Source: a virus
Lineage: Duplodnaviria > Heunggongvirae > Uroviricota > Caudoviricetes
Direction: 5' to 3' (one strand)
DNA: 36,364 bases
IMG/VR virus record: IMGVR_UViG_2711768060_000011
A program made the position numbers and the translations under genes. Shown here piece after piece: positions 1-35,212 of the stretch. Under the pieces are notes generated by a model that was given only the letters and a program-made list of their open reading frames with translations, did no database searches and was not told where the DNA came from. Numbering within the stretch: the stretch's first letter is position 1; every line of letters starts with the position of its first letter.

Positions 1-432
1 ATGGAAAAGACATATTATTTTAATCCCTCTGATTCGGGATTTTATATTTCACCAGATAGCCAAACCATTCCTGAGAACGCTACGAAAATAAACTTTACTA
101 TTTATTCTGAGTTCGCAGGAGTTGCATGGCCTGATGGTAAAATACTTGGTTCAGATAAAAATGGTTTTCCAGCATGGCAGGATGCGCCACCACTTACCAG
201 CGAAGAATTAATCTCAATCGCTGAATCAAATAAACAGCGATTAGTTAATCAGGCCAACGAATACATGAACAGCAAACAATGGCCTGGTAAAGCGGCGATT
301 GGTCGTCTGAAAGGTGAGGAACTGGCGCAATATAATTTGTGGCTGGATTACCTGGACGCACTGGAAATGGTCGATACTTCCAGTGCGCCAGATATTGAAT
401 GGCCTACGCCTCCGGCAGTACAGGCCAGATGA
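1..432 (+). CDS. tail fibre assembly protein (Tfa), second copy convergent with the neighbouring tfa
   Basis: ORF begins with ATG at window base 1; C-terminal ...DTSSAPDIEWPTPP matches the conserved Tfa C-terminal motif (lambda Tfa ...DTSTAPDIEWP); 3' end overlaps the minus-strand tfa by 29 nt. Confidence 0.7.
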   Translation: MEKTYYFNPSDSGFYISPDSQTIPENATKINFTIYSEFAGVAWPDGKILGSDKNGFPAWQDAPPLTSEELISIAESNKQRLVNQANEYMNSKQWPGKAAIGRLKGEELAQYNLWLDYLDALEMVDTSSAPDIEWPTPPAVQAR

Positions 433-1006
433 CATCCGGCGCGGTGCTGATATCTGTTGCCGTCACCGCGTCAATGTAATCCAGCACAGTGTTAAGTCGG
501 GTGGTCTCTGCCTGCATCAGCTTCCGCCCGGCCTGCAATTTCAGTTGAATCAGACTAATGGAAGCCATTGCAGTATCAATCAGTGACTGACGTTGTGCTT
601 CTGCCGCGTCTACTGCGGCGCTATGCTGTGTCTCAGTATCCGTCACCCATTTCTCACCATCCCATTTATCGTATGGCGTTAACGGGGCGATAGTGGTTGT
701 TTTTTCGGGGTAATCACCCGGAGTTGTGATTTCTTTGGCGTCTCCCGTTTCGGTGTTATAGACGATTTCACCGCGATGGTCTGGTACATATTCCCATGAG
801 TTAAAATCTGCAGAGCGGCAGATTGCATAACCAGCTTTGTAGGTGCCTGGAGCATCTAAACAGGAATATGCCGGAATGCCGACACCAACAGCAAGATATT
901 CAGTTGAAGCTGAAATATACTCCCGACTCATGACGTCAAAGTTATAAACAGTAATTTCTCCTGCCATAGTGGCAATTAATTCACTGTTTAATTCTGCGTT
1001 ATTCAT
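404..1006 (-). CDS. tail fibre assembly protein (Tfa)
   Basis: 200-aa ORF ending ...TATDISTAPDVIWPVLPEA (Tfa C-terminal motif); lies immediately downstream of the tail fibre gene. Confidence 0.75.
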   Translation of the reverse strand: MNNAELNSELIATMAGEITVYNFDVMSREYISASTEYLAVGVGIPAYSCLDAPGTYKAGYAICRSADFNSWEYVPDHRGEIVYNTETGDAKEITTPGDYPEKTTTIAPLTPYDKWDGEKWVTDTETQHSAAVDAAEAQRQSLIDTAMASISLIQLKLQAGRKLMQAETTRLNTVLDYIDAVTATDISTAPDVIWPVLPEA

Positions 1007-1551
1007 TATGCAGCCCTCACAATATAGTTAAAAGCGACATTTCGTGGGCGTGTTTCATTCGCACCTGCAGGTTTAGTCGTTGCCGCAACAACACCACCCT
1101 CTGTAATAGCCGGGTTGGGAATTGGGTAATTATCGAAGTCAATGGCTGGAGACAGGGGCGTGATTTGTTTTAAAATCGTGGTGCCTGTAAAACTTCCCAG
1201 AGTCTGGTCGTTAGTTCGTGAAGTCCAGATTCCCCAATAGTGGTTATGACTGACAATCGCACCGTCCTGAAGCGTTAATAATCCCCTTCCGTTATCCACT
1301 CCACGTCCGTCATCCCAGCCACGAATAAACTCACCGCGTAAATCAGGTAATTTATTTGTCGGATAAGCCTTTGCCAGTTCCGGGTATTCTTCAGCAGAAA
1401 AAGCTGCTCCGTTGCATTTCAGCCAGCCTGTTGGCGGAGTGGCTGAAGGCCACGGAACAGGCACACCAACGGGTAATGCTGAGCCTTCTCCCAAACCAAT
1501 ACCCGCGCCGAACTTATCCTTCTGCGCGGTTTTCGTGTCTATACGATGCAT
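1006..1551 (-). CDS. short tail fibre protein (collar/receptor-binding type)
   Basis: 181-aa ORF between a Mu gp48-like gene and tfa; Gly/Pro-rich, resembles short side-tail-fibre proteins of e14-type prophages; start ATG overlaps upstream stop. Confidence 0.55.
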   Translation of the reverse strand: MHRIDTKTAQKDKFGAGIGLGEGSALPVGVPVPWPSATPPTGWLKCNGAAFSAEEYPELAKAYPTNKLPDLRGEFIRGWDDGRGVDNGRGLLTLQDGAIVSHNHYWGIWTSRTNDQTLGSFTGTTILKQITPLSPAIDFDNYPIPNPAITEGGVVAATTKPAGANETRPRNVAFNYIVRAA

Positions 1552-1554
1552 GGA

Positions 1555-2139
1555 TTACTCCGGATATTTAAAAATCACATAGGTATGCGACGGGCAGAGT
1601 TTGTTAAGCACACACTCGACAACGGTGTCGCCCCATATACGCAGCGCGGAATCACAGGGATCGCCACATGTCATCCAGGTGGTGTTGGTGGCGGCTGGCA
1701 TGTTGACCTGCCAGTAATACCGCCATTCAGGCGCATTCACCGCGTCAGTACAGGCCGATGAGCAGGTGAATGTGCTTTTGTCGTATCGCGTGATGTTGGC
1801 ATCCGGTCTGCCCAGGGCAGCAAGCTGTGCAAGATAAAAATTCTCGTTGATGCCGCCCGCCAGGTTAACCTTCGCATCCAGCCGTTGCTGACGCTGGCGA
1901 AGGGTCTGTGTCCCTGTAGGAATACATTCATCCGGCAGGCCGCACAGACGCTCCCAGCGATTTATCAGTTCAGTGGTGGTGCGCGGATCCAGCTCCCGCA
2001 TCAGGGCATCCGCACGCTGATGAACGCGGGTTAATGACGGTGCCGCACCGGCAATCGCCGGATCGCTGGCTGACCACGCCGGACCGGGCGGCAACAGTGC
2101 TGACAACAGACGGATGTAATCATCGTTTGTCACGTCCAT
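1555..2139 (-). CDS. Mu gp48-like / YmfQ-like tail protein (DUF2313 type)
   Basis: 194-aa ORF directly downstream of the baseplate J-like gene, the position Mu gp48 and e14 YmfQ occupy. Confidence 0.55.
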
Positions 2140-3188
2140 GAAATCGCCCCCAGAACCGCCAGTTCATTTTTCGCAATGGTGATATTGTCCGCCGGTGCAA
2201 GCAACTGATGGCTGTATTCCCCGTTCGCACCGGAAATCGCTTCACTAATACGTGACACCTTCAGTTCTCCCTGCGGATAACCATCACGCAGCAGGAACGA
2301 ACGCAACTCCGCGGTGATGGCAGCCCGTATTTCCGGTGTGTCCGGCGTCACACGGATATGAAAATCCACCGTATGTGCCACCGGCCTGAACACATACAAA
2401 TCAGAGCCTGCCACCGGGGCCAGTGGCCCGATATGTTGTCTTGCCGCCGTTTCCGTTGATTCTTCCGGAATGGGATTAATCAGGTCACTGCTGGCAATCA
2501 TCACACCGACAGTCCCCGTTCCCATCCAGTGTCGGTATGTCCATGCGCGGGTAATGCCAGGCACTTCTTTAGCCCAGACGACATAGTCCCCGTCAGCCCC
2601 GCCCTGCGGCGTCCAGTAATACCGCTCAATGACGCGGGCGCGCCACGTTTCCAGCTCTTCAGTATCAAATCCGCCTGTCAGGGTGTCAGCCACACCGGAA
2701 GACGGCAGACCATTCACCGGCGTGACCAGGATTAATGCCGTACCGTCGTCAGCGTTACCGACCGCACCTGCACTTGAGCAGGCGATCGGCACGCGCAGGA
2801 CACCACCGGAGCTGATTGCATCGTCAGTTGTCGTGTACTGCACCAGGTCATCGCGCTGAATAACACTCCCGGCAGTCACCTTCAGGCCATCGCTGACACC
2901 TTCCCAGCGCATATACCCGCTGGCAACCGTGGCTCCCTTGCGCGGACACCGTTTCATCGCAGCATGTCGCGCCAGCCAGGACTCATCGCACAGGTCAGGC
3001 AGCATATTCATTGCCAGATAATCGATGTAACCGTAGACCGTATGCAGCGCCGCCGCATACACCTTTGCCCGCACGTCTTCATCCATGCGCCGGAGCGTGT
3101 CGCTGACGTCCAGCCTGGCGAATAAATCGTTACGGAGCATACTGATATTTTCTGCCAGCGTCGGGCGCTGAAATTCACTGTCCGCCAT
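2130..3188 (-). CDS. baseplate J-like protein (Mu gp47 family)
   Basis: 352-aa ORF in the conserved Mu order P-gp45-gp46-gp47(J)-gp48; size matches Mu gp47. Confidence 0.7.
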
Positions 3189-3603
3189 GCGTTATCGCAC
3201 TCCACAGATCATCAAAAGAAATCATTACCGGTCCGTCACGACGCCAGAGAGTGATACTGTTACCCAGTTCATTAATCCCGGTGCGACGGATATCCAGATC
3301 AATACGGGACACCACGCCGTCATCAATCATCCATTGCAGGCATTCGCGGATATAACCCCTTACCGTCTGCACCAGCTGATTGGTCAGTTTGCTGCGCTGA
3401 AGCAGCCACAGTCGGGAGCCGTAACGGTCATTCTGTACCGCAGGCCAGGTATCCCCCCACCATCCCATCGGGACGTCGGCGTTGTCATCAGGCTCCGCCC
3501 GCCGCCAGGTAAACAGGGAAATCACCACGGCGCGGGTCAGCGGATCCAGCGGTGCGCTGGCGCAGGTGCGTTTACCGTTCACCGTCAGCCACAGTTCCAT
3601 CAT
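3175..3603 (-). CDS. baseplate protein, Mu gp46-like
   Basis: 142-aa ORF between the gp45-like spike and J-like genes; overlapping stops and starts indicate coupling. Confidence 0.55.
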   Translation of the reverse strand: MMELWLTVNGKRTCASAPLDPLTRAVVISLFTWRRAEPDDNADVPMGWWGDTWPAVQNDRYGSRLWLLQRSKLTNQLVQTVRGYIRECLQWMIDDGVVSRIDLDIRRTGINELGNSITLWRRDGPVMISFDDLWSAITHGGQ

Positions 3604-9214: not shown

Positions 9215-10710
9215 TATGCGGACTCCTCTGAATACTGAAGACGGAACTGGTTAACCACGGCAAAGACACGCAACTGGTTAACATAGTCAGGCGGGAACAG
9301 CGTGTTCAGGCGGTTCGGATCGCTGGCATCACGCTCCACAACCAGGTACTGCTTAAAAAGTTCGTAGTTTTCCACGATCCCCGCACGCTCAAGCTGACGG
9401 TAGGTTGCCAGCAGTTCCCCTTTGATCACCGCCGGGGTGACAATCGCCTGACCGGGACCAAAGCGGGTACCGTCGCTGGCAAGCTTGTGACGCCCGTACT
9501 TACTGGTAATGACGGATTTCAGTTTGCGCAGTACATACGCACTGGTATGCAGCGTCTCGCTGTCGAGGTAGCTGTTATCCGCAACCCCGTAAGCGTTTTT
9601 CCTGTACGTGGTGACATCACGCTGAATGCGCAGTACCCCGCTTTCGACATACGCCGTTGCCACGCCATGAGACAGCAAGGTCTGTTGTTCGGTCATCGTG
9701 AACCGTTTCCCCTTCGGCGCAGGCTGCATACCCACCAGCTCACCGGTCTGCGTGGGACGTGCCGGATCGTTGCGGATAAACACCGCTGCGCGGGCGGTAC
9801 GGCTTGCCGCCAGCTCGTCGGCAGGCGTCTGGGTGTCTTTTTCGTACCCCGCCAGGGTAATGTGCTGCTGGTTAAACTGGTCACCTGCGGTCACCAGTTC
9901 TGACAGCGTGCCGATCTTTGCCGTATACACATGACCATACAGCTGACGCGCATAGCTCCAGCGACCGCTGGTATCGTTCATCTCGGTCACCAGCGTGTTA
10001 ACGGAGGCCGTGTCGTTGAACGGCAGGCCGATATAATCAAACGGCTCATCCGCCATTGCAGCCACCGCGCCGGTGAGAACCGGAGCACCCGTTCCGGCGG
10101 TACCCGTCGCCACGGCAATCTGTACGCCCGCTGGCAGCACTTCGCCCCCACCAAAGCCGTAGTAATTGAGGCTGACAGGAATTTCATTCCCGCAAAGCCC
10201 CTTATGACGCGCGGTCAGTGTGACCACGCCTGCCGAAGATGAAGCCGTAAACGGCAGGGTCGGAACGGCATTGATGGCATCCTGGATACTGCTGGCAATC
10301 ATCGTGACGTTATCGCCGTTAGTCACCGGTGCCTGCACGCGGGTACGTCCCACATACACATTCACCGTGCCGGTTTCGGTTGCCGCCCCGGTCACCGTCA
10401 GCGTAACCGTTGCCGCCGCGCCTGTGGATTCAGGAACGGCAATCACATACAGCTCGCCAAACGGGTCAGTCTGGCGATAAGCCTCGACCATACGCGCCAG
10501 CTGACTTCCCGCACCACAAATCTGGCGTGCATAGTCTGCCGACGGCATCAGTACCAGACTGTTGGCAACAATCTCTGCACCGTTATTGGCATGACCAATC
10601 AGCAGCGATGCTCCGCTGTCCTGTGCAGTATTCGCCGCCTGGTTATCCATTTCCGCATAAAACAACGGAACCAGCGTATTCGACGGAATGGTGTTAAAGC
10701 TTATCGTCAT
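9214..10710 (-). CDS. contractile tail sheath protein
   Basis: 498-aa ORF, size and position match Mu L sheath; followed by tube gene. Confidence 0.8.
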   Translation of the reverse strand: MTISFNTIPSNTLVPLFYAEMDNQAANTAQDSGASLLIGHANNGAEIVANSLVLMPSADYARQICGAGSQLARMVEAYRQTDPFGELYVIAVPESTGAAATVTLTVTGAATETGTVNVYVGRTRVQAPVTNGDNVTMIASSIQDAINAVPTLPFTASSSAGVVTLTARHKGLCGNEIPVSLNYYGFGGGEVLPAGVQIAVATGTAGTGAPVLTGAVAAMADEPFDYIGLPFNDTASVNTLVTEMNDTSGRWSYARQLYGHVYTAKIGTLSELVTAGDQFNQQHITLAGYEKDTQTPADELAASRTARAAVFIRNDPARPTQTGELVGMQPAPKGKRFTMTEQQTLLSHGVATAYVESGVLRIQRDVTTYRKNAYGVADNSYLDSETLHTSAYVLRKLKSVITSKYGRHKLASDGTRFGPGQAIVTPAVIKGELLATYRQLERAGIVENYELFKQYLVVERDASDPNRLNTLFPPDYVNQLRVFAVVNQFRLQYSEESA

Positions 10711-10872: not shown

Positions 10873-11433
10873 TCAGGAAGGAAGGGTTATTTCGGTGTGA
10901 TGTTCGATATCGCCGTCAGGCCCGTTACCGGGCTCGAGATAATCAACATCAATCGCCAGCGTTTGCAGTTCATCCAGACTGTTCAGATCATCCTGCTGGC
11001 GGGTATCGTCTTCAGTCAGCTCGCTGATGACCGAAAAATCGAACTGATAAATCAGCTCATGACGATTCAGATCCAGCAGCGTGCCGCCGTCATAGGTAAT
11101 CGGGTTACCGCACGCCTCCGGGTTCCAGCCCAGCAGAGCCTTAAAGAGCATCTGCCGGACATCGTCCACCACATCATACGAGGCAAACTGACCGCGCTCA
11201 TCACGCCCGTTACTCAGTATGACAACCACGGAGAAGCCCTCTTTCAGCTCCTGCCAGTAGTCGGTCTGGCTTTTGTTTTCTCCCGGAGAGTCATCACCCG
11301 GTACCACATACGCCGCCGGGAGTCTCAGCTTTCCGACCTCCGGCAGATTTTTGAACTGGGCCGCGCCTGCCACCCGGTTTTCAAAATACGGACAGCGGGC
11401 ACGCAGTGCAGCAATAACAGGCGTCAGTTTCAT
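10873..11433 (-). CDS. tail-associated protein (putative tail terminator/completion, Mu-type)
   Basis: 186-aa acidic ORF between the head-tail joining genes and the sheath; position-based call. Confidence 0.4.
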   Translation of the reverse strand: MKLTPVIAALRARCPYFENRVAGAAQFKNLPEVGKLRLPAAYVVPGDDSPGENKSQTDYWQELKEGFSVVVILSNGRDERGQFASYDVVDDVRQMLFKALLGWNPEACGNPITYDGGTLLDLNRHELIYQFDFSVISELTEDDTRQQDDLNSLDELQTLAIDVDYLEPGNGPDGDIEHHTEITLPS

Positions 11434-33840: not shown

Positions 33841-34101
33841 ATGAGGTTATCAAAAATGCTTCAAATGCTGACACTTGAGGAATGGGCTGCGGAAAAATTT
33901 AGGAGTAATCCTCCAAGTGTGTCCACATTGCGTCGTTATGCTAAGCAGAATTTATTTTGTCCACCGGCAATGAAACAAGGTCGACTATGGCGAGTACGTG
34001 AGGACGCAGAGTTAGTTGGGGAATTAGTTACTCCTGTCATCAAGAAAAGTGATTCTATTATTCTACAAAGGATTTTAAGTAATGGCAGCCAGACCACGTA
34101 A
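33841..34101 (+). CDS. excisionase (Xis-like DNA-binding protein)
   Basis: 86-aa ORF immediately upstream of and overlapping the integrase start by 20 nt. Confidence 0.5.
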   Translation: MRLSKMLQMLTLEEWAAEKFRSNPPSVSTLRRYAKQNLFCPPAMKQGRLWRVREDAELVGELVTPVIKKSDSIILQRILSNGSQTT

Positions 34102-35212
34102 AAATAATGTTTCAGTCCCGAACTTGTATCCACTTTATAGTAGAAAAGTAAATAAAGTCTATTGGCGATATAAACATCCAGTGACCGGGAAGTTTCATTC
34201 TTTAGGCACAAACGAAGCTGAAGCCATTGCTATTGCCACTGAGGCAAATTCACGCCTGGCTGAGCAAAGAACCCGGCAGATTCTGGCTATCAGTGACAGG
34301 ATCGCAACCAGCAAAGGAAAAGCAATCACAACGTCAACCTGGTTAGATCGCTATCAAGCAATCCAGGATGACAGACTGGAAAGTGGCGATATAAAGCTCA
34401 ACACCTATAAACAGAAAGCCAAACCAGTATCCTTGCTCAGGGAACGAGCAGGAATGAAATTAATTTCATCAGTTGATGTAAGGGATATAGCGCAATTGCT
34501 TGACGAGTATATCACTGCCGGGCAACCGAGGATGGCGCAAGTAGTCCGCTCCGTTCTAATTGATGTATTCAAGGAGGCACAACACTATGGGGAAGTCCCT
34601 CCGGGCTATAATCCAGCACAGGCAACCAAACAACCCAGAAGAAAAATTACCCGACAACGGTTAAGTCTTGAAGAATGGCAAAAAATCTTTGATATCGCAG
34701 ATGCCAGTCATCGTTATATGGGGAATGCCATGCTGTTAGCACTGGTTACCGGCCAGAGGTTAGGTGATATCTCGCGTATGAAATTTAGCGATATTTGGGA
34801 TGATCATCTCCATGTCATCCAGGAAAAAACCGGGAGCAAAATCGCCATCCCGCTTTCTCTTCGTCTCAACGCGATTAACTGGAGTTTACGCGATGTAGTC
34901 GCCCGCTGCCGTGACTATGCAGTCAGCCCATACCTTGTGCATTTTTTTCGTACCACTTCACAGGCTGAACGTGGCGCGCAGGTTAAATCCAATACATTGA
35001 CGACGAATTTTAGTAGAGCGAGAGATTTGGCAGAAATTGACTGGGGTAATGGCTCACCAGCAACATTCCATGAACAAAGGTCTTTATCTGAACGTCTGTA
35101 CAAAGAACAGGGGGTAGACACACAAAAACTACTTGGCCATAAAACGCAACAACAAACCGATCGTTATCATGATGATCGGGGAAAAGATTGGATGTATATC
35201 CACCAGTTTTAA
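34082..35212 (+). CDS. int: site-specific tyrosine integrase (lambda Int family)
   Basis: 376-aa ORF; C-terminal LLGHKTQQQTDRYHDDRGKDW resembles the lambda Int C-terminus (GHKSDTMASQYRDDRG) with the catalytic Tyr. Confidence 0.9.
   Translation: MAARPRKNNVSVPNLYPLYSRKVNKVYWRYKHPVTGKFHSLGTNEAEAIAIATEANSRLAEQRTRQILAISDRIATSKGKAITTSTWLDRYQAIQDDRLESGDIKLNTYKQKAKPVSLLRERAGMKLISSVDVRDIAQLLDEYITAGQPRMAQVVRSVLIDVFKEAQHYGEVPPGYNPAQATKQPRRKITRQRLSLEEWQKIFDIADASHRYMGNAMLLALVTGQRLGDISRMKFSDIWDDHLHVIQEKTGSKIAIPLSLRLNAINWSLRDVVARCRDYAVSPYLVHFFRTTSQAERGAQVKSNTLTTNFSRARDLAEIDWGNGSPATFHEQRSLSERLYKEQGVDTQKLLGHKTQQQTDRYHDDRGKDWMYIHQF

Follow-up and report, generated by a model that had tools for sequence, protein, structure and literature searches.

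A probable Pin-invertible tail-fibre switch at the edge of an e14-like icd prophage, with a 237-bp gap at one crossover site

Where a short tail-fibre gene and its assembly gene run into a second assembly gene on the opposite strand, one may ask whether the locus is a switch that exchanges fibre tips, and whether the copy at hand could still turn. This question is raised by the first 1,551 nucleotides of a prophage record in IMG/VR (IMGVR_UViG_2711768060_000011; 36,364 nucleotides, the whole stretch being called the window below). A preliminary description had placed a short fibre gene with its tfa on the minus strand and a second complete tfa, starting exactly at the window edge, on the plus strand, and this layout was borne out by open reading frames and Pfam domains. 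The plus-strand gene, tfaB (1–432), encodes a 143-aa tail-fibre assembly chaperone (Caudo_TAP, E = 4.7e-30), annotated as WP_000416464.1 in relatives; its ORF is complete, its first base is window base 1, and it converges on tfaA (404–1006, minus strand), whose product is a 200-aa chaperone and TfaE orthologue (Caudo_TAP, E = 3.6e-29). The tail-fibre ORF as recorded (1006–1551, minus strand) encodes 181 aa with a Collar domain (E = 1e-15). Directly upstream of it lies ymfQ (1555–2139, minus strand), the product of which is a Mu gp48-like baseplate protein (Pfam Phage_Mu_Gp48) with 97% identity to K-12 YmfQ, and next beyond ymfQ comes the baseplate J gene (2130–3188, minus strand). The 29-bp overlap of the convergent tfa genes is flanked by an 18-nt inverted repeat, GCTGGATTACCTGGACGC and GCGTCAATGTAATCCAGC (342–359 and 468–485); it reflects the conserved C-terminal motif LDYLDA/LDYIDA encoded on opposite strands and is not a recombination site.

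The window begins with an ATG codon and ends with a stop codon, thus it was cut at gene boundaries. Its source, contig CXYG01000012.1 of the draft assembly GCA_001269325.1, extends 361 bp further to the left of window base 1, and these 361 bp encode, on the plus strand, a Gp53-like_C fibre tip, i.e., an alternative C-terminus. The contig then terminates with TTGGTTTGGGAGAAG, exactly at the central TT of a second crossover site. Judged from its sequence, the prophage is a full-length e14 relative inserted in icd, with SfV-type tail genes. At the other end of the window, intE (34082–35212) is followed by a gene for a 350-aa DUF262-domain protein that ends at the last base, and in strain RM7190 one further hypothetical gene stands between the DUF262 gene and icd, so that the right end of the prophage reads xisE, intE, the DUF262 gene, one more gene and icd. 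Together with mcrA at the opposite end, the DUF262 gene could represent defence cargo carried at both prophage ends.

What lies to the left of the segment can be read in near-identical genomes. Apart from one gap, positions 1–3200 are 100% identical to E. coli JNEC-KY176, the left flank of which contains, reading leftwards, the Gp53-like fibre tip, pinE, mcrA and an icd remnant. The pinE product of the relatives is a serine invertase (Pfam Resolvase, E = 1.5e-51; HTH_7, E = 1.4e-13) with 98% identity to K-12 PinE, this being also the value for JNEC-KY176 Pin, and its gene is positioned 26 bp beyond the segment-side ORF. At the DNA level the JNEC-KY176 pin gene is 96% identical to the active K-12 pinE, with zero differences over nucleotides 25–110. 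In switches of the Din family (Gin, Cin, Pin, Hin) a Fis-dependent recombination enhancer would be expected within the 5' part of this gene. In the aligned locus L001 two inverted 20-nt arms, AAACGTTGGTTTGGGAGAAG and CTTCTCCCAAACCAAGGTTT, are found 1,830 nt apart. The complete sites in relatives comprise 26 bp each: the fibre-gene pix site reads TTCTCCCAAACC-AA-GGTTTTCGAGAG and the pin-side pix site TTCTCCCAAACC-AA-CGTTTATGAAAA, and both are identical to the K-12 ones. Measured from central dinucleotide to central dinucleotide (L001 7640–7641 to 9498–9499), the segment is 1,860 bp long. The preliminary description had expected the partner fibre segment and an invertase just to the left of the window. 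The alternative C-terminus is indeed encoded by the source contig itself, and the invertase was found solely in the prophage copies that are 99.9–100% identical; it is unseen for the source strain because the contig ends at the pin-side site. Leftward extension through the near-identical genomes thus yielded all the elements sought there, namely the alternative C-terminus, pinE and the matching inverted sites.

Window positions 1–1499 correspond to the right-hand 1,499 bp of this 1,860-bp P-type invertible segment (L001 8001–9499). Two alternative C-termini with their own tfa genes are arranged tail to tail, the Collar tip with the 200-aa chaperone on the minus strand and the 143-aa chaperone with the Gp53-like_C tip on the plus strand. 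The variable, receptor-binding part of the recorded fibre (1006–1499, minus strand; 58% identity to K-12 StfE) falls inside the segment, and a remnant of the constant part (1500–1551, minus strand; the first 17 codons and one base) lies outside it. The inner inverted repeat CCTTCTCCCAAACCAA is located at 1484–1499 and comprises the inner pix half-site (1486–1497) and the crossover dinucleotide AA (1498–1499); its sequence agrees fully with an arm present in L001 and with the e14 repeat in the literature (PMC12529663). In this record the two sites are incomplete: the fibre-gene site consists of the inner half and AA (1486–1499), the outer half GGTTTTCGAGAG being absent, and the contig end truncates the second site at its centre. 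The constant N-terminal part of the fibre is reduced to 17 of the 96 codons that relatives possess in full, and it is still in frame. The remnant of the true crossover site is CCTTCTCCCAAACCAA at 1484–1499 and not the stretch 1521–1546, which had been thought to resemble hix/gix-type sites in part and which agrees with the true site at 7 of 26 bases in that register. The best register nearby, 1514–1539, agrees at 15 of 26 and was rejected as a crossover site, since this is chance level: on the two strands of 1,551 nt about one match of this quality would turn up at random, and the window holds 23 sites that equal or exceed the score of register 1514–1539.

Does such a segment invert? Over positions 11400–36364 the window is 100% identical to the prophages of RM7190 and FHI_NMBU_10 and 99.9% identical to that of JNEC-KY176; the segment stands in the opposite orientation in the first two and in the same orientation as the window in the third. 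Among complete genomes, a clean junction of the constant part with the Gp53-like tip was found in 9 and a junction of the constant part with a Collar-type tip in 514, and one derivative of K-12 MG1655 is flipped with respect to the reference. In at least 17 draft assemblies the segment forms a lone contig of 1,818–1,823 bp bounded by the repeats, and since these repeats are far shorter than assembly k-mers, the breaks point to cultures of mixed orientation. The P segment of K-12 e14 is 1,797 bp long and flanked by the same repeats, TTGGTTTGGGAGAAGG and CCTTCTCCCAAACCAA (PMC12529663); its inversion by PinE and PinQ was shown experimentally, and it was reported as inverted in 33% of 562 genomes, with both forms present in clonal cultures (PMC12529663, PMC4272514). 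Both orientations, which the preliminary description had suggested seeking in long-read data, are thus represented among the near-identical prophages and among K-12 derivatives.

Two further features of the relatives deserve mention. The JNEC-KY176 and FHI_NMBU_10 prophages carry an IS3 insertion, which the window and RM7190 are without. In RM7190 (E. coli O91, NZ_CP015244.1; L002 6975–7083) a duplicate of the first ~110 nt from the Collar-type cassette lies beside the fibre-gene pix site and replaces the start of the Gp53-like cassette, which results in a frameshifted stfP pseudogene. The duplication probably arose as a long-read consensus artefact, the culture having been of mixed orientation; it could also be a real rearrangement.

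The presence of pinE, the inverted sites and both orientations in relatives, together with the published inversion in K-12, supports the proposal of an e14/Mu-type invertible fibre switch, and positions 1–1551 are very probably part of a Pin-invertible fibre switch (P segment) in an intact e14-like, SfV-type icd prophage. In the mechanism proposed, the fixed start of the fibre gene, after ymfQ, would read across the 26-bp crossover site into the 1.86-kb segment, which holds the two fibre C-termini, Collar/StfE-like and Gp53-like_C, each with its own tfa, tail to tail. PinE, encoded just past the far end, would flip the segment between the two inverted sites and so exchange the tip and the chaperone that are joined to the constant part. 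The state in the window is that with the StfE-type cassette in the expressed position, opposite to the MG1655 reference. The gene ymfQ marks the fixed, expressed side of the switch; tfaA is the chaperone of the cassette now joined to the fibre gene, and tfaB is that of the currently silent cassette, cognate to the Gp53-like_C tip left of the window. By analogy with Mu and P1, the switch may alter the phage's host range; for the K-12 orthologue, a block to adsorption of phage T2 is the sole function that has been shown (PMC12529663). As the outer half-site is lost from the fibre-gene site, the copy in the window should not invert, if the record is correct.

Why, then, is the fibre gene of this record short? 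The reason is that 237 bp present in every relative are missing between positions 1499 and 1500. In the pairwise alignment the gap covers L001 9500–9736 and starts right after the central AA, so that it removes the outer pix half-site and codons 18–96 of the constant part, in frame (79 codons); in relatives the fibre comprises 260 aa and its gene 783 bp. The recorded 181-aa protein is composed of 17 constant StfP-type codons, the junction codon ATT and the StfE-type variable C-terminus. Its residues 1–17 are identical to those of the 260-aa JNEC-KY176 fibre and residues 18–181 show 99.4% identity to residues 97–260 of it, while the remnant at 1500–1551 is identical to the start of both K-12 stfP and the JNEC-KY176 fibre gene. 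At the junction CCCAAACCAA is joined to TACCCGCG. In each of the best 25 matches among the 5,426 complete E. coli genomes the alignment is interrupted by 237 bp; the junction 29-mer was absent from IMG/VR, GTDB species representatives and JGI metagenomes, and the exact 181-aa protein (WP_053289346.1) comes from a single contig among ~15 billion proteins. Exact protein look-up found none of the reciprocal, opposite-orientation or sister products, and a literature search for assembly GCA_001269325.1 gave no match.

The right end of the gap was inspected for sequences that might account for it. A quasi pix site matches there at about 3 of 24 half-site positions in register, and a GGTTTT half-site motif near the end is 3 bp out of register and predicts another junction; neither was retained. 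Slippage between direct repeats was rejected too, as there is no microhomology, and the nearest GGTTT repeats would give a 231-bp loss and a different sequence. In intact relatives the right end is flanked by a 7-nt inverted repeat, CGGGTAA...TTACCCG, whose loop is 8 nt long (L001 9720–9741); the gap ends one base inside its right arm, and the window keeps only this arm (1500–1505). The yfdL remnant of CPS-53 (L006 2501–2742, K-12 type) is a paralogue of the constant fibre region in which a complete pix-type site is preserved. Its similarity breaks off 10 nt short of the right end of the gap, and the paralogue's own junction occurs in 360 of 5,426 complete genomes. The distance of 10 nt equals the default edge trim of GapFiller, a program that needs an overlap of at least 10 nt to close a gap. 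A collapsed CPS-53 repeat was nevertheless rejected and the agreement treated as coincidence, because the paralogue's junction is found in only 360 of the 5,426 genomes and because GapFiller needs overlap.

Whether the 237 bp were really deleted or were lost in assembly is close to an even call. There is about an even chance that the gap is an assembly error and that the strain possesses a normal fibre gene, for 260 aa, together with a working switch; both crossover sites would then be present in this copy as well. Mixed orientation would have made both pix centres branch points of the assembly graph, and the segment would have been misjoined to the ymfQ side. Such a course is favoured by the contig terminus, which coincides exactly with the central TT of the other pix site. 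For a de Bruijn unitig to stop at a pix centre, the reads must have two different continuations, and this implies that two sites were working in the culture; a clone that lacks one site could not invert, so that a break at the other site argues for an artefact. In at least 17 further draft assemblies the segment likewise stands apart as a contig of its own. Neither the junction nor the 181-aa protein was found outside the one draft contig, and a probable consensus artefact at this site is also seen in the RM7190 record. Against an assembly error stands the join itself, which is clean: it contains no Ns, and the joined ends have neither a k-mer nor an overlap in common, a product that graph assemblers and GapFiller do not normally yield. 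Moreover, no known repeat boundary falls at the right end of the gap, the paralogue in CPS-53 being 10 nt short and its junction confined to the 360 genomes mentioned, nor was any phage homology found to end there; a mechanism that would generate the artefact was not found.

A real deletion, for which the chances fall somewhat short of even, would have arisen by Pin cleavage at the crossover dinucleotide followed by illegitimate joining. The outer half-site and codons 18–96 would thereby have been removed, leaving the StfE-type cassette locked and the fibre without most of its constant part. The left end of the gap coincides exactly with the top-strand cleavage position of serine invertases, behind the central AA, and the chance of that position for a random endpoint in the 783-bp gene is below 1%; in addition the loss is in frame, and a contig without Ns implies that the junction k-mers were present in the reads, which was counted in favour of a deletion. 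The right end is less accommodating, since it has neither a pix-like sequence nor microhomology. A clonal locked mutant should also have been assembled through the pin-side site, yet the contig breaks exactly there, and the event would be a singleton, with no other record and no predicted sister products found. It is unlikely that the loss is both real and made by Pin, with cleavage at the crossover dinucleotide resolved to a deletion and with either a still-recombining hybrid half-site or a locked mini-fibre as the outcome. If it were so, a hybrid half-site that still recombines with the pin-side site would explain the contig break; alternatively, the product would be a locked in-frame mini-fibre of 17 aa and the receptor-binding tip, which could act as a free receptor-blocking protein, like K-12 StfE2.

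It is very improbable that the 237 bp were moved and not lost, Pin having used, besides the pin-side site, a secondary site that lies 237 bp into the constant region, and having inverted the DNA between the two. From an RM7190-like starting orientation, this event would have placed the 237 bp left of the segment, beyond the contig end. In reconstruction it gives the same junction, with both new fusions in frame; RM7190, the closest relative over the rest of the prophage, has the required orientation and, like the window, lacks IS3, and Cin and Gin are known from older literature to use secondary sites. The putative secondary site is, however, unlike pix and has the central dinucleotide CT, not AA; ten predicted partial products of the reciprocal junction were absent from the protein collection, and the contig, which should run through the intact site into the moved 237 bp, stops at its centre instead. 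Least credible of all is that the convergent tfa genes are a fixed relic without inversion, as in P2-like phages with a leftover second tfa, for although pro483 and other P2-like phages share window positions 221–1499 at 87–94% identity, including part of the second tfa and with no invertase annotated under the match, the flanks here are of e14/SfV type and not of P2 type, near-identical prophages have pinE, both sites and both orientations, and the source contig breaks at the second site.

The reading of the locus as a Pin-invertible switch has consequences that differ with the nature of the gap. Should the gap be an artefact, the switch is a normal one of e14 type. A real deletion would mean that one site has been destroyed and that the switch is locked with the StfE-type tip, the fibre being left with little of the constant part that probably attaches it to the baseplate; the case would then be a natural one in which a serine invertase damaged its own site and froze a phase-variable locus. 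In either case the switch system is already known, and as it stands the gap is not support for a new mechanism. Descriptions of the e14 P segment with Pin date back to the 1980s, and the biological importance of the locus is therefore small. In 2025 the segment was tied to anti-T2 defence (PMC12529663). Two practical points follow for sequence records: a provirus boundary set at gene edges, like that of the window, can cut through an invertible switch and leave the invertase out, and draft assemblies, even long-read ones, are unreliable at invertible sites, so that odd fibre alleles need read support.

Among the systems that are known, the P segment and PinE of K-12 e14 come closest, with the same icd insertion site, gene order and 26-bp sites. 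The order in K-12 is ymfQ-stfP-tfaP-tfaE(-)-stfE(-)-pinE-mcrA-icdC. Besides the matches to YmfQ, StfE and PinE given above, the 200-aa chaperone shows 85% identity to K-12 TfaE over 200 aa, the C-terminal half of the 143-aa chaperone 67% identity to TfaP, and the constant 105 aa of the JNEC-KY176 fibre 97% identity to StfP, and the pin-mcrA DNA of a relative is 97.4% identical to that of K-12. There are also differences. The prophage described here is full length (~40 kb, SfV-like), whereas e14 is a 15-kb remnant; the segment comprises 1,860 bp as compared with 1,797 bp; in the second cassette the identity between the Gp53-like tip and the StfP tip is only about 33%, and the tfa is TfaP-like in its C-terminal half alone; and 237 bp at the fibre-gene site are missing in this record. 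From sequence comparison, unrelated phages appear to exchange fibre-tip cassettes, the pix site forming the boundary. The similarity to pro483, to a P2 phage from O157:H43 T22 and to a set of Klebsiella phages, which covers 221–1499 at 87–94%, ends exactly at the crossover point, and SfV, SfI, SfII and SfIV share positions 1500–3200.

In the G segment of Mu, served by Gin, and the C segment of P1, served by Cin, a serine invertase is likewise encoded beside two fibre C-termini with cognate chaperones, the constant fibre part lies outside the segment, and the crossover sites fall within the fibre reading frame. These switches, with segments of 3 kb (G) and 4.2 kb (C), were shown to change the host range. 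The invertase-adjacent layout of two cassettes is like that found here, but the fibre and chaperone sequences differ. The Hin system of Salmonella employs a recombinase of the same family, the same 26-bp site design and the central AA/TT crossover dinucleotide; the H segment, however, flips a promoter for flagellin genes, whereas the switch described here flips coding cassettes. The PinQ/StfE2 anti-T2 defence of K-12 (Kirigo et al. 2025, PMC12529663) has both segment and repeats in common with the switch described here. The orientation in the window corresponds to the 'inverted' state of that study, in which the pin-side chimeric ORF would here end in the Gp53-like tip; compared with the StfE2 system, this tip is a different allele, and the pin-side ORF lies outside the window.
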